A stretch of DNA of 25,720 nt from an uncultured Bacilli bacterium (GCA_947631885.1 CANRMZ010000001.1:1-25720); one strand, 5' to 3'. Shown: positions 3,538 to 15,579, numbered from the stretch's first letter. Notes: generated by a model not told the origin, from the letters alone. Numbers and translations: made by a program.

Positions 3538-3777
3538 TTATTCTCCATATCCATTATTAAGGCAATCTATACAAATACATTCATTTCCAATATACCTTAA
3601 ATCTTCATATCTTTTTAATTCATTGCAATTATCACAAACGTGAAAATCTCTTATATCTTCACAACTCACACAACTCGCACAATGAGTTCCATCTACTTCA
3701 AAGTGACTAATGTCGCACTCATATCTTCCGTTTCCTTTTTCTGTGGCATGTATACAAGTTTCACATTTAGTAGACAT
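3538..3777 (-). CDS. Cys-rich putative zinc-binding protein (start reassigned to 3777)
   Basis: RBS GGAGG plus TAATG coupling; several CxxC motifs (CETC, CASC, CDNC, CIDC). Confidence 0.65.
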   Translation of the reverse strand: MSTKCETCIHATEKGNGRYECDISHFEVDGTHCASCVSCEDIRDFHVCDNCNELKRYEDLRYIGNECICIDCLNNGYGE

Positions 3778-4559
3778 TAATCCTCCACCACTAAAACATT
3801 TACTGTTTTTGTTAATATTGTACAACCATCTATAAATATCTTGTTATCATCTGTTTTTAATATGGAATTATCGTCAAAATCTTTCGTATCGATTTGCCAC
3901 ATTTTTCTTAAATGACCTGTACCAAAATGACCTACAACAATTGTTTTGTTTGTTGGATTCTTCTTTGTAATAAAACTGCCATCATCCCAAGTTAAGGCTT
4001 GCCAATCTGTAAATCCAAGATGTTCACAGTGTGGTTTACGCCAATCTTCAGCATAGGTATCAATGGATGCATGTGTAAATATATCATTTTCCGTTTCATA
4101 ATAATATGGTAAATTTTTTATCCATTCTAATAAATCAGGATATTCCTCATTAATCTCTTTCCGTGCTTTTGCAATCCATTTGCCAAAATCACTATATAAT
4201 GGGTTATCAATATTGTTTTCTATCAAGCACCATGATTCAAAGGGAGAAGTACGATGTAACAAGTCTGCTAGTGTTTCATTCACTCCATTTCTATAATAAT
4301 TAAATGGACTTGTGATTGAACCATCCAAGTACCCTTCTAACATTGGTTCGTGATTTCCTTTCAAACAAATTGCCTTGCCCTCATCATTTAATCTCTTTAA
4401 ATATAGATAGACTTCTCTTGACTCACTTCCTCTATCAAACATGTCTCCCAAGCTAATCAATTTATGATCCAAATTGTTTTCATCATAACCCGCTTTATTT
4501 AAAGCGCCTATCAATTCATTAAAATGTCCGTGTATATCGCTTACTACAAAATATTTCAT
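3777..4559 (-). CDS. Calcineurin-like metallophosphoesterase (NinI/PPP-like)
   Basis: SDIHG, GDMFDRG, GNHE, FTHA and GH motifs. Confidence 0.9.
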   Translation of the reverse strand: MKYFVVSDIHGHFNELIGALNKAGYDENNLDHKLISLGDMFDRGSESREVYLYLKRLNDEGKAICLKGNHEPMLEGYLDGSITSPFNYYRNGVNETLADLLHRTSPFESWCLIENNIDNPLYSDFGKWIAKARKEINEEYPDLLEWIKNLPYYYETENDIFTHASIDTYAEDWRKPHCEHLGFTDWQALTWDDGSFITKKNPTNKTIVVGHFGTGHLRKMWQIDTKDFDDNSILKTDDNKIFIDGCTILTKTVNVLVVED

Positions 4560-4577
4560 TTTTATCCTTTCACATAA

Positions 4578-4748
4578 TTATTTAAAATACTTTTCACACT
4601 CTTTTAATATTACATTATCCGTAGCATAAATTTCATAACATTTATTTTGGGTAATATCATTATTGCAATAATGAAGTGCACCAAATATTCCCAAACACAT
4701 AGTTGCTAAAGCTATAAGCATTATTAAAAATTCATCAAAATCGTCCAT
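4578..4748 (-). CDS. Small membrane protein, 56 aa (not in the ORF track)
   Basis: Manual translation MDDFDEFLIMLIALATMCLGIFGALHYC...; TAATG coupling with a GAGG RBS. Confidence 0.55.
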   Translation of the reverse strand: MDDFDEFLIMLIALATMCLGIFGALHYCNNDITQNKCYEIYATDNVILKECEKYFK

Positions 4749-4942
4749 TATTCCTCTTTCTTGTTATCCCTTTCATAAATTCTCTTTAAATCCGCTAACA
4801 AAGAATCGATTGTTAAATCTTCCACTTCTTCAATCAATGTTTCAATCAACATTTCTATACCTAACAACATGGTAACATATGGTGTTCCTTTATCCACAAG
4901 TAATGTAGCATTATTATCGTCTACTGTTTTAATAGTTATCAT
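4748..4942 (-). CDS. Hypothetical protein
   Basis: 64 aa in the coupled gene string. Confidence 0.65.
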   Translation of the reverse strand: MITIKTVDDNNATLLVDKGTPYVTMLLGIEMLIETLIEEVEDLTIDSLLADLKRIYERDNKKEE

Positions 4943-5079: not shown

Positions 5080-5277
5080 TTACACTTTCCCTGCTTTATC
5101 AATTCTTTGCTCAGCACTTTCTAACGCACTTGATAATTTGTCATTAATATTATTCAATTCAACAATTTTTTGTTGTAACTCAATATAAACTGATACCAAC
5201 TCATTAAAAGCATTTCTGTCGCCTACATAAACCATTTGTAATTTTGCTGTAAATTCTTCTATAGTCATTTTATTCAT
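5080..5277 (-). CDS. Hypothetical coiled-coil protein
   Basis: 65 aa with a heptad-like C-terminal half. Confidence 0.6.
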   Translation of the reverse strand: MNKMTIEEFTAKLQMVYVGDRNAFNELVSVYIELQQKIVELNNINDKLSSALESAEQRIDKAGKV

Positions 5278-9771: not shown

Positions 9772-9892
9772 AATTAACGTAAAAGATTTAACAACATTTT
9801 TGAATTACCTGCTAGATAAAGTGGAAGAATGCTACAAAGAAGAATGTATGCAGTCACTTCAAAGATTTTTGAAAAGAAATGGGGTCTTATAA
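9761..9892 (+). CDS. Hypothetical protein, 43 aa (not in the ORF track)
   Basis: RBS GGGGTG; fills the gap before the resolvase. Confidence 0.45.
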   Translation: MKIEINVKDLTTFLNYLLDKVEECYKEECMQSLQRFLKRNGVL

Positions 9893-9894
9893 TT

Positions 9895-10707
9895 ATGAAT
9901 AACTACGATGAAAACTTAAAAGAAATTAATTACTACATAGATTTATATGAAAAGGGAGAGTTTCCAGATATCAAGCAATATATAACAAGTGAAAACTTGT
10001 TTTTCTCCCTTTATAAATGCGATATTTATGCGTATTTACGAGTATCAACAGAGCATCAAGATTTTGGAAGGCAAATTATAGAATTATATCATTTTCTTAA
10101 AAAGAGAAAAATTTCTATTCCTATTCAACACATCTTTTTTGATAAATACACAGGAAAAAAGATAGATCGTGAACAGTATCAAGAAATGAAAACTTATTTT
10201 AAAGCAAATGATTATTTGTTAATTCCTAACCTATCCAGACTCGGCAGAAATTGGGACGATGTAAAAAAAGAATGGTATGAAATGGAAACTAAAAATATAA
10301 ATAGAGTCGTTTTAGATAACGAAAATTTATCCGTTGAACTTCCAAGCGAAGAAAAGAAAGTGGTTACACTTGAAAAGAAAATGATACAAGATATCACTTT
10401 CAGTGCTTGCCTTTACTCAGCATGTCAAAAGATTCAAGAAGTTAGTTCAGCAACAAAAGCAGGAATCGAAAAAGCACGAGAACAAGGAAAAACCATTGGT
10501 AGACCAAAAGGAAAATTTACGACCGAAACTAATTTTTTAGAAATGTTGAAAGCAATAAACAACGGGGAATCCCAAAAAGAAGCTTCTAAAAAATTAAAAT
10601 TTCCAGTAAGAACTTTCCAAGAATGGTTATATCGTTATTATAAAAGATATAACGTTAAAACCATAAAAGAACTACTATATTTATTAGAAAGAGAGGCTCA
10701 AAAATGA
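9895..10707 (+). CDS. Serine recombinase, resolvase/invertase family (start reassigned to 9895)
   Basis: YAYLRVSTEHQDFGRQ (catalytic Ser), DKYTGK, LSRLGRN, AREQGKTIGRPK and a C-terminal HTH. Confidence 0.92.
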   Translation: MNNYDENLKEINYYIDLYEKGEFPDIKQYITSENLFFSLYKCDIYAYLRVSTEHQDFGRQIIELYHFLKKRKISIPIQHIFFDKYTGKKIDREQYQEMKTYFKANDYLLIPNLSRLGRNWDDVKKEWYEMETKNINRVVLDNENLSVELPSEEKKVVTLEKKMIQDITFSACLYSACQKIQEVSSATKAGIEKAREQGKTIGRPKGKFTTETNFLEMLKAINNGESQKEASKKLKFPVRTFQEWLYRYYKRYNVKTIKELLYLLEREAQK

Positions 10708-13087: not shown

Positions 13088-13165
13088 TGGAGACCTTTAT
13101 TGGATTCGAACCAATGAATCACGAATTTGCAGTTCGTTGCCTTAAACCATCTTGGCTAAAAGGTC
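13088..13165 (-). tRNA. tRNA-Cys(GCA)
   Basis: Acceptor GACCTTT/AAAGGTC, U73, encoded CCA, anticodon arm ACGAA-CTGCAAA-TTCGT, T-arm ATTGG-TTCGAAT-CCAAT. Confidence 0.93.
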
Positions 13166-13380
13166 TATAACGTAAAAAGTACCGAATCATCGGTACATCA
13201 ATGAAAAATGAATTATCTTGTAAGTCTTAAACAACAAGTACCGTTCTGCTATCTAATCATTACTTATAATTCGCATGGTTACCAACGACATGTACTCAAT
13301 AATGATTTATCATTAGCTTTCAAACCATGTCATCAGTAGAATTAAATCGTATAATCTTGTCTATAACACTTTTTTATACA

Positions 13381-13491
13381 AAGCCCTCATGTTATAGATA
13401 AGTTATAAGTCGTCCGCATAATTACGAACCAATTCCAGTATTGTAAAATAATTTACCATCTTTTTAGCGTTCTGTTTTGCTGTACGGGCTT
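13381..13491 (-). ncRNA. ACAGCAA-motif RNA unit 4
   Basis: Closing stem AAGCCC/GGGCTT, then GTACAGCAA; internal hairpins including a degenerate GGTTCG loop. Confidence 0.65.
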
Positions 13492-13501
13492 AAATGTAAA
13501 C

Positions 13502-13585
13502 AAGGCACCATTTTAAACTAAACGTTTCAATATTACCCTTTAATATCTGTTTGTTTTCTTTTAATTGTTTGCTGTAATGTGCCTT
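13502..13585 (-). ncRNA. ACAGCAA-motif RNA unit 3
   Basis: Closing stem AAGGCAC/GTGCCTT, then ATTACAGCAA; internal ATATTA-AAGGG-TAATAT hairpin. Confidence 0.65.
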
Positions 13586-13591
13586 TCATTC

Positions 13592-13700
13592 AAAGGACCT
13601 ATAATGCTCTACCGACTGAGCTACTCGCCCTTATAGGGTAAGAATGGATTCGAACCATTGACGTTTGCATGAATTGCATTGTTATTGCTGCAAGTCCTTT
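13592..13700 (-). ncRNA. Y-RNA (YrlA)-like circularly permuted tRNA mimic, unit 2
   Basis: AAAGGAC-TTGCAGCAAT..., T-arm AATGG-TTCGAAT-CCATT, acceptor-like CTTACCC-TATAA-GGGCGAG closed by a loop, D-arm TA-GCTC-AGTCGGTA-GAGC, ...GTCCTTT pairing with the 5' end. Confidence 0.8.
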
Positions 13701-13704
13701 TCTA

Positions 13705-13770
13705 ACAATCGTCTTTATTGATTCCTAAATTACAAGTTTAGACCAAATGAATTGCTGTACGACGATTTGT
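13705..13770 (-). ncRNA. ACAGCAA-motif RNA unit 1 with anticodon-like hairpin
   Basis: Closing stem AATCGTC/GACGATT, then GTACAGCAAT; internal CTAAA-CTTGTAA-TTTAG. Confidence 0.65.
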
Positions 13771-14031
13771 TTATTTTTTCTTCGTTCTTCTGCCTTTTCT
13801 AAAATGTTCTTTTGAGAAAATTTGTGCTTTTTCTTTAATCTCTTTACCCAGAGAAGTTAAGAACTTAGAGGCTTGAGAATTGCTCTTTAATTTCTTATTT
13901 GTTTTTCCCTTTTTATCAAGGTTCTTTTGTGTAACTACATAATGTTCTTTATATTTTTGATCCTTTAGTGGACTACTACCACCATGTAATCTCTTAGCCA
14001 TGATTTTCCTCATACTTCTTGTAATACTCAT
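13771..14031 (-). CDS. Small, highly basic protein (alternative start at 14001)
   Basis: K/R-rich; overlaps the 3' end of the DUF2828 gene; GAGG RBS before ATG 14001. Confidence 0.55.
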   Translation of the reverse strand: MSITRSMRKIMAKRLHGGSSPLKDQKYKEHYVVTQKNLDKKGKTNKKLKSNSQASKFLTSLGKEIKEKAQIFSKEHFRKGRRTKKK

Positions 14032-15316
14032 CTAAAAGAGTATTTAAAAATCTTTCTCCATCAAATCCAGCTTGTAGATATTTTAACATCATAGGCGAAT
14101 ATCCACTAATGTAAATATTTCCCATTTCATCTGTCTCGGGAACAGTCCTATTCTTTGCAAAATTCCACCAAACTATCTTAGTAGTATATCCTTTTTCTTT
14201 CCATAGTTTTTGTAATTCCTTTTTTGATTGATTAGAACCTATATCAAATTCCATATCAGATAACACAACTAAATATTCTGGCATCTCTTCTAATCCCTCT
14301 AATAACTTCATAACTTTACCAAAATCAGTATTGGAACAATCTCCTGTGTACATAGAAGTTAATTCTCTACTATATTTATTAGAATTTCCAAAACTCCAAC
14401 CTTTACATTTATTCATTTCATGAATAGTTATTAATTGAGGATTACTTGAAAAGCTAATCAATTGTCCGTTACAATATGTAGAACATTTTGATAAATAATG
14501 TGCTATAGATATTGCTTTACCAATACTATCATTACTGTCCCACATAGAACCACTTGTATCTAATATTGGAATACAATTTATTTTGATTTTCTCTAATTTA
14601 TCAAAGAATAAATCAGCATCTATTTTATCTCTGTTTCTATAAATATCATAGACGTTAGTAGTTGAAATATTTAATTTCTTTTCTCCTTTTTTAACGCTTT
14701 CTAAATACTTTTCAAAACGTACCCTTGTGTCTTCTCCTTTAGCAAATCTTGCATAGTATTTTACCATTGCTAAACTTGGAACTTGTTCAAATTTAATTTC
14801 ATTTGTTCTACATTCTGTTAGTTTCTTTTCAGTTGTTTCTACTTTAATTAGTTTACGATATTCTTTTTCTGAAAGTTTTAAATATTCACACAACGCTTTA
14901 GCAAGTTCTCTATTTGTACCTGTTAATCTTGGAAACCATTTTTTAGCTAACGCATTACCTTCTATAGCTCTCTTATACATGTAATCAACATATCGGTATA
15001 ATTGTTCAATATTGTTTGTTCCAGTAAGAAGTAAATCATCGAAACGACCACAATATTCAATATCTTCTGCATCAACTTCTGATAATCCTAATAATTTTCT
15101 TCCTAAGTCACGACGTCCTAATCCATTTCTTGGATCACGGATAAACATAGAAAACAATTTTTCCCTATCACTATTTCCAATATGTACTTCGTCTAAATGG
15201 TTTTCAAAATAAGAAGTCATAAACAAAATATCTAATAAATGATTTCCTGTTGTATTGTAGGATAAATCTCCATTTTCTGTTTTCTTTTTTGCAAATACTT
15301 TTTCTAATGCATTCAT
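13994..15316 (-). CDS. DUF2828-family protein with C-terminal vWA domain (Ro60/TROVE-like)
   Basis: TENGD..., FIRDPRNGLGRRD, AKKWFP, EYRK, QVPSLAM, MIDAS LDTSGSM, NTDFGKV, LSDMEFD, IVWWN, ISGYS follow the DUF2828 family pattern. Confidence 0.85.
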   Translation of the reverse strand: MNALEKVFAKKKTENGDLSYNTTGNHLLDILFMTSYFENHLDEVHIGNSDREKLFSMFIRDPRNGLGRRDLGRKLLGLSEVDAEDIEYCGRFDDLLLTGTNNIEQLYRYVDYMYKRAIEGNALAKKWFPRLTGTNRELAKALCEYLKLSEKEYRKLIKVETTEKKLTECRTNEIKFEQVPSLAMVKYYARFAKGEDTRVRFEKYLESVKKGEKKLNISTTNVYDIYRNRDKIDADLFFDKLEKIKINCIPILDTSGSMWDSNDSIGKAISIAHYLSKCSTYCNGQLISFSSNPQLITIHEMNKCKGWSFGNSNKYSRELTSMYTGDCSNTDFGKVMKLLEGLEEMPEYLVVLSDMEFDIGSNQSKKELQKLWKEKGYTTKIVWWNFAKNRTVPETDEMGNIYISGYSPMMLKYLQAGFDGERFLNTLLDEYYKKYEENHG

Positions 15317-15345: not shown

Positions 15346-15422
15346 TGGTTGCTGATAATGGGCTCGAACCATTAAAATGTAAGCTCCAAGGGCTTATGTG
15401 TTACCAATTTCACCAATCAGCA
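15346..15422 (-). tRNA. tRNA-Gln(UUG), atypical anticodon loop
   Basis: U1-A72 acceptor TGCTGAT/ATCAGCA, encoded CCA, anticodon arm TAAGC-CCTTGGA-GCTTA. Confidence 0.82.
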
Positions 15423-15423
15423 A

Positions 15424-15500
15424 TGGTTACACCGACAGGATTTGAACCTGCAACCTCATGTTCCCAAAACACGTGTTCTGCCAAATTGAACTACGGCATA
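15424..15500 (-). tRNA. tRNA-Pro(UGG)
   Basis: Anticodon arm CGTGT-TTTGGGA-ACATG, T-arm GCAGG-TTCAAAT-CCTGT, A73 and encoded CCA. Confidence 0.88.
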
Positions 15501-15504
15501 ATGT

Positions 15505-15579
15505 TGGTTTCAGGGATGGGATTTGAACCCACATAGAACAGATAATGAGTCTGCCGAGTTACCAATACTCTACCCTGAT
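15505..15579 (-). tRNA. tRNA with CAU anticodon (Met-like; identity uncertain)
   Basis: ATCAGGG/CCCTGAA with an A1-A72 mismatch, GCAGA-CTCATTA-TCTGT, T-arm GTGGG-TTCAAAT-CCCAT, encoded CCA. Confidence 0.85.

Follow-up and report, generated by a model that had tools for sequence, protein, structure and literature searches.

A Ro60-like phage protein and an adjoining array of four handle-bearing RNAs: a probable variant on the Ro60/Y-RNA plan

The Ro60/Y-RNA particle, a human autoantigen, is a classic RNA-surveillance system that is still poorly understood. A 25,720-nt contig from an uncultured Bacilli bacterium (GCA_947631885.1 CANRMZ010000001.1:1-25720; analyzed over its whole length and called the window below) raises the question of whether four small RNAs and the protein encoded beside them form a particle of this kind. 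On the minus strand, a gene for a 440-amino-acid (aa) DUF2828 protein is followed by four stem-closed elements that share the motif ACAGCAA, which the earlier note, made from the DNA alone, had read as a divergent Ro-like protein with its cognate Y-like RNAs. Our answer is that the window probably specifies a phage ribonucleoprotein that follows the Ro60/Y-RNA plan and displays look-alikes of transfer RNA (tRNA). The module suggests that the Ro60/Y-RNA system has a second, large branch, with a protein family of approximately 2,400 clusters at 50% identity that reaches into well-studied phages (Felix O1-like, A511/P100-like, Campylobacter phages, mycobacteriophage cluster L, and Lak megaphages). 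The closing element common to the RNAs, termed the handle here, is a simple and testable signature for locating them, and the tRNA-part cargo that they enclose suggests what the particle engages.

The protein (13994-15316, minus strand) matches PF25043 DUF7788 (4e-16) and PF11443 DUF2828 (1.4e-11) in Pfam. An AlphaFold (AF2) model built with 54 homologues (predicted local distance difference test, pLDDT, 86; predicted template modelling score, pTM, 0.81) places an N-terminal helical ring at approximately residues 1-240 before a C-terminal von Willebrand factor A (vWA) domain, in which the MIDAS (adhesion site dependent on metal ions) residues D253, S255, S257, T330, and D354 are invariant among the 42-54 homologues compared. 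The 13 best Foldseek matches of this model in the PDB are all Ro60/TROVE structures (E 1e-8 to 6e-4), including Xenopus, human, and Deinococcus Ro60, the Ro60 of Thermus phage phiLo, and an entry titled "Trove domain." VIA-align likewise returned Ro60/TROVE as its 10 best matches, with Z-scores of 16.4-11.9 and 328-385 residues aligned over both domains, whereas vWA-only proteins reached a Z of at most 10.4. RO60 supplied the five best matches among Swiss-Prot models, and both DUF7788 and TROVE proteins were among the matches in the AFDB clusters. The proposed divergent Ro-like protein is therefore borne out by a predicted fold that matches Ro60/TROVE over its full length, ring and vWA domain included, and we consider that the fold is very probably Ro-like. 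The link to Ro60 is by predicted fold only. A Ro-like nature of the family had already been hinted at by annotation and by one preprint: PHROG 850 and RefSeq label its members "RNA-binding protein," SEA-PHAGES uses "Ro-like RNA binding protein," and the homologue gp130 of phage Bas63, discussed below, was reported to resemble Ro60. At E ≤ 0.001 the family comprises 2,398 representatives at 50% identity.

All four RNA units lie 230-620 nt downstream of the Ro-like gene and on its strand. Direct reading and a script both recovered them as tandem, stem-closed, minus-strand elements with the stems that the earlier note had named; its coordinates were exact for units 2-4, and for unit 1 they carried two to three extra flanking bases. 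Each unit has a closing stem of 6-7 bp, a spacer of 2-3 nt, and then [A/G]CAGCAA. Unit 1 (13707-13767, 61 nt) has the handle AATCGTC-GT-ACAGCAA...GACGATT; unit 2 (13592-13700, 109 nt; fold z -2.3) has AAAGGAC-TT-GCAGCAA...GTCCTTT, with a stem that can be extended to 9 bp; unit 3 (13502-13585, 84 nt) has AAGGCAC-ATT-ACAGCAA...GTGCCTT; and unit 4 (13381-13491, 111 nt) has AAGCCC-GT-ACAGCAA...GGGCTT, a handle also found in a locus of another phage (L051). Successive units are separated by 6, 6, and 10 nt. By itself, the number of heptamers is not significant (six in the window vs. 2.7 expected, with 6 of 100 shuffles reaching six); as a cluster of stem-closed [A/G]CAGCAA elements, the array is the only one in the 1.1-Mb assembly to which the contig belongs.

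A covariance model, R1, was seeded with 39 short units, namely window unit 1 and units of other phages. All four window units were among its six best matches in the window: unit 1, which is in the seed, at 41.6 bits (E 2e-8), unit 3, which is not, at 29.7 bits (E 2e-5), unit 2 at E 0.05, and unit 4 at 13.3 bits (E 0.37). An R1 match at 5207-5259 (E 0.026), which has mismatched stem pairs and lies inside an open reading frame (ORF), was taken as chance.

Is the array peculiar to this contig, or does it travel with the gene? In 80 IMG/VR viral loci with homologues at 45-67% identity, R1 (E ≤ 0.01) found 123 matches in 63 loci, one to five per locus. All but one of these (122 of 123) were on the gene strand; 109 were downstream of the gene (median 255 nt), 13 upstream (median 114 nt), and none within it. 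Several of the loci that lacked an R1 match still showed units by simple pattern search. The consensus handle is an A, a 7-bp stem AANNNNC, a 2-3-nt spacer whose last base is usually U, ACAGCAA and a further A, a variable interior, GNNNNUU, and G, the base after the 3' stem strand being G in 100 of 101 units.

Across 102 distinct rows, which had been selected for or fitted to the stem, 99.9% of stem cells were paired, seven of seven pairs changed on both sides, 233 stem cells were doubly changed (vs. 83 ± 12 in shuffles), and the covariation score was 0.79 (vs. 0.26 in shuffles and at most 0.18 in slid registers). An alignment made with MAFFT only gave the same picture. The expectation that stem sequence would vary while pairing was kept thus holds, all seven pairs covarying across the family. 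Because the rows were chosen or fitted on the stem, the independent evidence is the enrichment of stems at gene-strand ACAGCAA sites in related loci: 62% of these sites are flanked by a stem of at least 7 bp, vs. 20% on the reverse strand and 20% in shuffled downstream sequence, and 32% by one of at least 8 bp, vs. 0 and 6%, respectively. The combination of stem and ACAGCAA is enriched beside DUF2828 homologues and on the gene strand, as the earlier note had supposed, and the RNAs are almost certainly a real, gene-linked family.

Three close relatives, whose proteins are 93, 86, and 80% identical to that of the window, retain the array with compensatory stem changes: AAGGCAC/GTGCCTT of unit 3 becomes AAGACGC/GCGTCTT in L090, AATCGTC/GACGATT becomes AATCGCC/GGCGATT, and AAAGGAC/GTCCTTT becomes AAAGGTC/GACCTTT. 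The G that opens the motif of unit 2 reads A (ACAGCAA) in all three, and unit 4 is conserved in L086 and L090. The 93%-identical relative, L086, also holds a fifth unit (4760-4879, AAAGGGC/GCCCTTT), which bears a T arm and a hairpin resembling a D arm and is inserted after the counterpart of unit 2 and before that of unit 3; whole units are therefore gained or lost by arrays within short spans of evolution.

Next to the gene and on its strand, the handle also occurs in Escherichia phages wV8 and Bas63 (Felixounavirus), Mycobacterium phage Whirlwind, Listeria phage LMTA-57, Enterococcus phage A2, Bacillus phage Chewbecca, Campylobacter phage NCTC12673, and Lak megaphages, so that units adjoin the gene in seven of the eight cultured or named phage lineages sampled. 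Phage wV8 has four units, Whirlwind has three directly after the gene, and a Bas63 unit lies at L100:22240-22297. The outer stem is lineage-specific, reading AGACC in Felixounavirus, TGGAC in the mycobacteriophage, and AA(A/G)G in the window phage. In wV8, two handle units (L092:4508-4720) overlap the minus-strand "hypothetical protein" gp048 (4562-4819), a coding-sequence call that may be spurious, and the same cluster carries two "tRNA-OTHER" pseudogenes in the wV8 record. A tRNA-splicing ligase gene lies 1.3 kb from the homologue in LMTA-57. Some neighborhoods contain a further RNA: a ROOL RNA (RF03087, 130 bits, cut by the contig end) lies at L091:3595-3958, a few hundred bases from the array of the 80%-identical relative, and a sub-threshold ROOL match (88.5 bits) lies at L095:514-1065, upstream of the DUF2828 gene in LMTA-57. 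No ROOL occupies the corresponding place in the window.

What do the handles enclose? The cargo of unit 1 includes the hairpin CTAAA-CTTGTAA-TTTAG (13741-13725), which we take to be a Thr(UGU)-type tRNA anticodon stem-loop; the incomplete assembly contains no tRNA-Thr(UGU) for comparison. Unit 2 carries a T arm, a closed acceptor-like hairpin, and a D arm, which together make up a YrlA-like tRNA mimic, and it is the only window unit with the tRNA-like module of YrlA. Unit 3 encloses a hairpin with a GGG-containing loop and no recognized module, and unit 4 likewise has no recognized tRNA-like module. Neither ARAGORN nor the Rfam tRNA model called a tRNA on any of the four window units. In a survey of 123 non-redundant units, a 5-bp stem with a TTCRA T-loop was present in 34% (vs. 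0.1% shuffled) and a 5-bp stem with a 7-nt Y-U-NNN-R-N loop in 37% (vs. 2.7% shuffled). The loops are identical to real anticodon loops; those with a match among the tRNAs of the assembly are TTTGGGA (Pro), CTTTTAA (Lys), CTGATAA (Ile), CTTTGAC (Gln), CTGTAAA (Tyr), and CTCCAAA (Trp), and further recurrent loops, such as CTGTTAA and CTGAAAA, are presumably of Asn and Phe type, respectively. The cargo mimics tRNA parts. The earlier note had called the interiors unrelated, a description that does not extend to the family, where the interiors mostly imitate tRNA parts, namely T arms and anticodon stem-loops.

Three units in related contigs (L045:4369-4428, L039:4600-4663, and L045:4171-4242) contain a near-complete tRNA body in D-anticodon-T order that scores 40-46 bits with the Rfam tRNA model. 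Two of them match only tRNA positions 5-66 or 7-64, the handle replacing the acceptor stem. Such near-whole-tRNA cargo is a second topology beside the permuted, YrlA-like one.

These bodies, together with the gain and loss of whole units between close relatives and the presence of a serine recombinase/invertase gene in the window (9829-10707), could also suggest that the units act at the level of DNA or transcription, as recombination sites, cassette boundaries, terminators, attenuators, or decayed tRNA genes. However, their stem arms are 45-120 nt apart, covary, and tolerate G-U pairs, as expected of pairing in RNA, and the strand bias is strict. The units lack a T run, the sole terminator-like site being the one after the array, the single-stranded motif is invariant, and the tRNA-like hairpins far exceed the shuffled expectation. 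We regard a DNA- or transcription-level role as extremely unlikely.

Given a family of RNAs with tRNA-like cargo beside a Ro60-like gene, the obvious comparison is with established Ro60 systems. Bacteria have Rsr with YrlA, YrlB, or Yrn1, the RNAs being encoded beside the Ro60 gene, and Ro60 with YrlA has been described in 254 bacteria and 22 phages, in a survey restricted to TROVE-annotated proteins (Chen et al., 2014, PMC4201824). Thermus phage phiLo encodes a Ro60 with Yrl1 and Yrl2 (PDB 9l5y), its Yrl RNAs being defined by a CGAA bulge (PMC12135203). In known Ro60 systems, which lie near RNA-repair genes, Y RNAs serve as gates or tethers, e.g., to PNPase (PMC4201824; PMC12135203). The window module has several of these features, namely a protein with a helical ring and a C-terminal vWA/MIDAS domain (Z 12-16), several small RNA genes adjoining the protein gene, RNAs closed by a stem of their 5' and 3' ends with a neighboring conserved element, a tRNA-like module in at least one RNA (unit 2), and tRNA and RNA-repair genes nearby. 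It departs from them in its protein, which is of the DUF2828/DUF7788 type rather than TROVE/vWA_Ro60, in arrays that reach five units among the phages, and in isolated anticodon stem-loop cargo, of which we found no example in the Y-RNA literature compared.

No Rfam family reaches its threshold on the four units, and searches for YrlA and Y_RNA, which the earlier note had in view as a check on novelty, gave only a sub-threshold match of YrlA (RF02553) to the tRNA-like core of unit 2 (27.6 bits, E 0.0011, gathering threshold 69). The alignment covers YrlA model positions 24-84, including GGTTCGAATCC and AGCTCAGTCGGTAGAGC; the best relative scores 45.1 bits. Such matches (27-45 bits, in unit 2 and several relatives), the Ro60-like fold, the "Ro-like RNA binding protein" label of mycobacteriophage homologues, and the published spread over bacteria and phages would all fit a canonical Rsr/YrlA system that has diverged too far for Pfam and Rfam, with no new protein branch or RNA class. 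Yet the matched core excludes the Rsr-binding stem (positions 1-23 and 85-114), the YrlA consensus handle has no ACAGCAA, and three of the four window units, like most units elsewhere, have no YrlA-like cargo. Pfam finds neither TROVE (PF05731) nor vWA_Ro60 (PF25045) in the window protein, and the published survey took TROVE-annotated proteins only (PMC4201824). A canonical system in disguise is therefore very unlikely. In Enterococcus phage A2, a full-length sub-threshold YrlA-like RNA (L096:1830-1951, 45 bits) without ACAGCAA has an ACAGCAA unit on either side, upstream of the phage's DUF2828 gene, so that one locus can accommodate both types of handle.

The closest likeness to the handle itself comes from social amoebae. 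Dictyostelid Class I RNAs are closed by a short terminal stem whose 5' strand is followed by a conserved, unpaired motif of 11 nt, the remainder being variable; they are 42-65 nt long with an invariant 5' G, are expressed from dispersed genes with their own DUSE promoter, have been reported as unique to Dictyostelia, and have as their known binder Rnp1A/CIBP, a protein with an RNA recognition motif (RRM) (Kjellin et al., 2021, PMC7919456). In the window units, too, an unpaired motif (..CUUACAGCAA) follows the 5' strand of a terminal stem, and both architecture and heptamer match the RF01414 consensus, GaUcuC-CUU-ACAGCAA...GagAuC-UG vs. AAGGCAC-AUU-ACAGCAA...GUGCCUU-G in the window. Units 2 and 3 fit the conserved Class I positions T3, C6, C9, A10, and A11 fully, whereas position 3 is G in units 1 and 4. 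RF01414 is also the best Rfam match of a related phage unit (L020:4237-4296; 23.9 bits, E 0.013, over the full model length, with a gathering threshold of 41.5), and it did not match the window units even at E ≤ 10. In contrast to Class I RNAs, which are eukaryotic, the window units start with A, measure 61-111 nt, and are clustered in a phage. At the level of sequence and predicted architecture, then, the handle resembles that of Class I RNAs, which is resemblance and not membership and may reflect convergence.

For the novelty of the handle, which the earlier note had placed in a candidate new Ro/Y-RNA system, the outcome is divided: no Rfam family reaches threshold, but a closely similar handle has precedent in Dictyostelium Class I RNAs. 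Literature searches, including one with UACAGCAA, found no published description of the window RNAs. The RNA handle is absent from Rfam, and we class the module as a variant on the Ro60/Y-RNA plan. A bolder proposal is that the handle defines an ancient cross-domain class of ribonucleoproteins parallel to Ro60/Y RNA, in which DUF2828/DUF7788 rings would partner Class I-type RNAs in phages, gut bacteria, and, by way of eukaryotic members of the protein family, dictyostelids. Each phage array would then supply a library of decoys, modeled on anticodon loops and tRNA elbows and held on the ring, that absorb or report tRNA-targeting immune nucleases and feed RNA repair. We think this rather doubtful. 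If the two kinds of RNA were homologous, the match would overturn the uniqueness of Class I RNAs to social amoebae and suggest a protein partner; if the cross-domain class were real, Class I RNAs would gain both a binding partner and a mechanism.

A lead on function comes from phage Bas63, whose gp130 was reported to resemble Ro60 and to counter the Ppl defence (PhageMaP preprint, 10.1101/2024.10.10.617714). This protein and that of the window are homologous (25% identity over residues 12-423, E 2e-35), and the gp130 gene lies directly upstream of a tRNA cluster that contains handle-bearing units. The preprint's authors conjectured that Y RNAs might be among the annotated tRNAs (10.1101/2024.10.10.617714), and they did not identify the ACAGCAA units, which sit between the tRNAs. 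A further difference is that no Ppl system is known in the host of the window phage. Because a homologue has been reported to defeat a bacterial defence, the RNAs may be the missing half of a counter-defence or RNA-repair mechanism.

Several observations weigh against a Ro-like particle formed by this protein and these RNAs. On the protein side, the TM-scores of the structural matches are moderate (0.40-0.58), the ring is approximately 90 residues smaller than that of Ro60, the TROVE and vWA_Ro60 families go unmatched in Pfam, and neither phmmer nor the family profile found a significant Ro60 in the PDB, the profile reaching E 0.71 in the vWA part only. On the RNA side, units 2 and 4 score weakly with R1, the covariation rows were not chosen independently of the stem, the YrlA-like match of unit 2 leaves out the YrlA stem, and the handle is a 7-bp stem with single-stranded ACAGCAA rather than a CGAA-bulged helix; since it is unlike known Ro-binding sites, the analogy leaves the binding mode unfixed. 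No unit lies within 2.5 kb of the homologue in Aeromonas phage Aeh1. Finally, plasmid-borne gp130 alone rescued T7 on Ppl (10.1101/2024.10.10.617714), and at least the anti-Ppl activity may therefore not need the RNAs.

The last two of these points and the unfamiliar handle would also suit a reading in which the RNAs are real and structured, and are clients of a host or phage enzyme of tRNA processing, modification, or repair, the DUF2828 protein acting alone and co-occurring with them through tRNA islands. The location of units among or beside tRNA genes and the many cargos that mimic tRNA parts likewise agree with it. However, units follow the gene even where there is no tRNA, as in Whirlwind and in Lak phages, which have no tRNA within 3 kb. 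The near-complete restriction of units to the gene strand, their short median distances from the gene, and their absence from its interior also argue against mere tRNA-island company, and the lineage-specific outer stem is as expected from co-evolution with a phage-encoded partner. Clients of another enzyme are thus an unlikely explanation, less so than a diverged Rsr/YrlA system.

Under the reading that we prefer, a phage particle on the Ro60/Y-RNA plan, one transcript would take in the tRNA genes, the Ro-like gene, the small basic ORF that follows it, and the four RNAs before ending at a terminator at 13196-13179, and the RNAs would be cut out of it as tRNAs are. Each would then present the common handle, i.e., an end-joining stem of 6-7 bp with an inner C-G pair, a 2-3-nt spacer, single-stranded ACAGCAA, and a G after the 3' strand, which the DUF2828/DUF7788 ring with its intact vWA MIDAS would bind as Ro60 binds the terminal stem of a Y RNA. 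The variable interior would be cargo imitating tRNA parts, in the window a Thr(UGU)-type stem-loop, a YrlA-like mimic, and two unclassified domains. The particle may present these look-alikes to anticodon nucleases or other RNA-targeting defence nucleases, to RNA-repair ligases, to exoribonucleases, or to modification enzymes, acting as a tether, gate, or decoy during infection. By analogy with Ro60, the protein probably binds the RNAs; a specific decoy or repair role is put forward tentatively, as the less likely part of the proposal. Co-transcription, processing, and a role in counter-defence or RNA repair are what we infer from the layout and the comparisons above. The tRNAs that flank the gene and the RNA ligase and phosphoesterase of the phage were counted in favor of a Ro-like particle.

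The surrounding locus is compact. In minus-strand order it comprises genes for tRNA-Met(CAT), tRNA-Pro(TGG), and tRNA-Gln(TTG) (15346-15579, directly upstream of the Ro-like gene; called by ARAGORN and scoring 50.6-59.3 bits with the Rfam tRNA model), the 440-aa gene, the basic ORF, the four units, a 184-nt tail, the terminator, tRNA-Cys(GCA) (13088-13165; ARAGORN and Rfam), and a RusA gene. The ORF-free tail (13197-13380, minus strand) folds into two long predicted hairpins (-39.5 kcal/mol, z -2.7); it lacks the ACAGCAA handle, matches nothing in Rfam, and is partly conserved in L086 and L090, a part being deleted in L086. The intrinsic-terminator-like hairpin with T run (13179-13196, minus strand) is conserved in relatives and is the likely end of the transcription unit of tRNAs, Ro-like gene, and RNA array. 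In a scan for sigma-70-like promoters, sites were no commoner than in shuffles.

The window is the entire contig and has phage character, with terminase, DnaB-like helicase, Rad52-like, exonuclease, HNH, and RusA genes. It was binned in a rabbit-gut assembly (1.1 Mb, 80% complete, 29.5% GC) whose GC content it almost exactly shares, and it may be a prophage, a plasmid-like phage, or a binning passenger. The locus is present in rabbit-gut DNA sequencing runs; megablast of the locus against a phage collection gave no match. Two genes farther along the minus strand bear on RNA repair, one for an RNA ligase family protein (2180-2794; PF09414, 1e-11; PHROG 548, RNA ligase) and one for a calcineurin-like metallophosphoesterase (3777-4559; PF00149, 2.9e-13; PHROG 246 and 20114), which is a possible RNA end-healing enzyme. 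Encoded by the same phage on the same strand, the two could form an end-healing and sealing pair; no kinase partner was recognized in the phage, and no RtcB was found in the 1.1-Mb, 80%-complete assembly.

The small basic ORF that the earlier note had placed downstream of the DUF2828/vWA gene is real (13771-14001, minus strand, 76 aa), as judged from its sequence, translation, and conservation in close relatives. Its likely start, an ATG at 14001, shares bases with the Ro-like gene's stop codon, an arrangement suggestive of translational coupling. The ORF is confined to the closest relatives and absent from more distant loci; gene calls in relatives make it 76 or 40 aa long (40 aa in L090), and its opening ~25 codons persist with mostly synonymous changes in L086 and L090. 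Very basic and rich in lysine and arginine, the 76-aa product could be a small RNA-binding partner.

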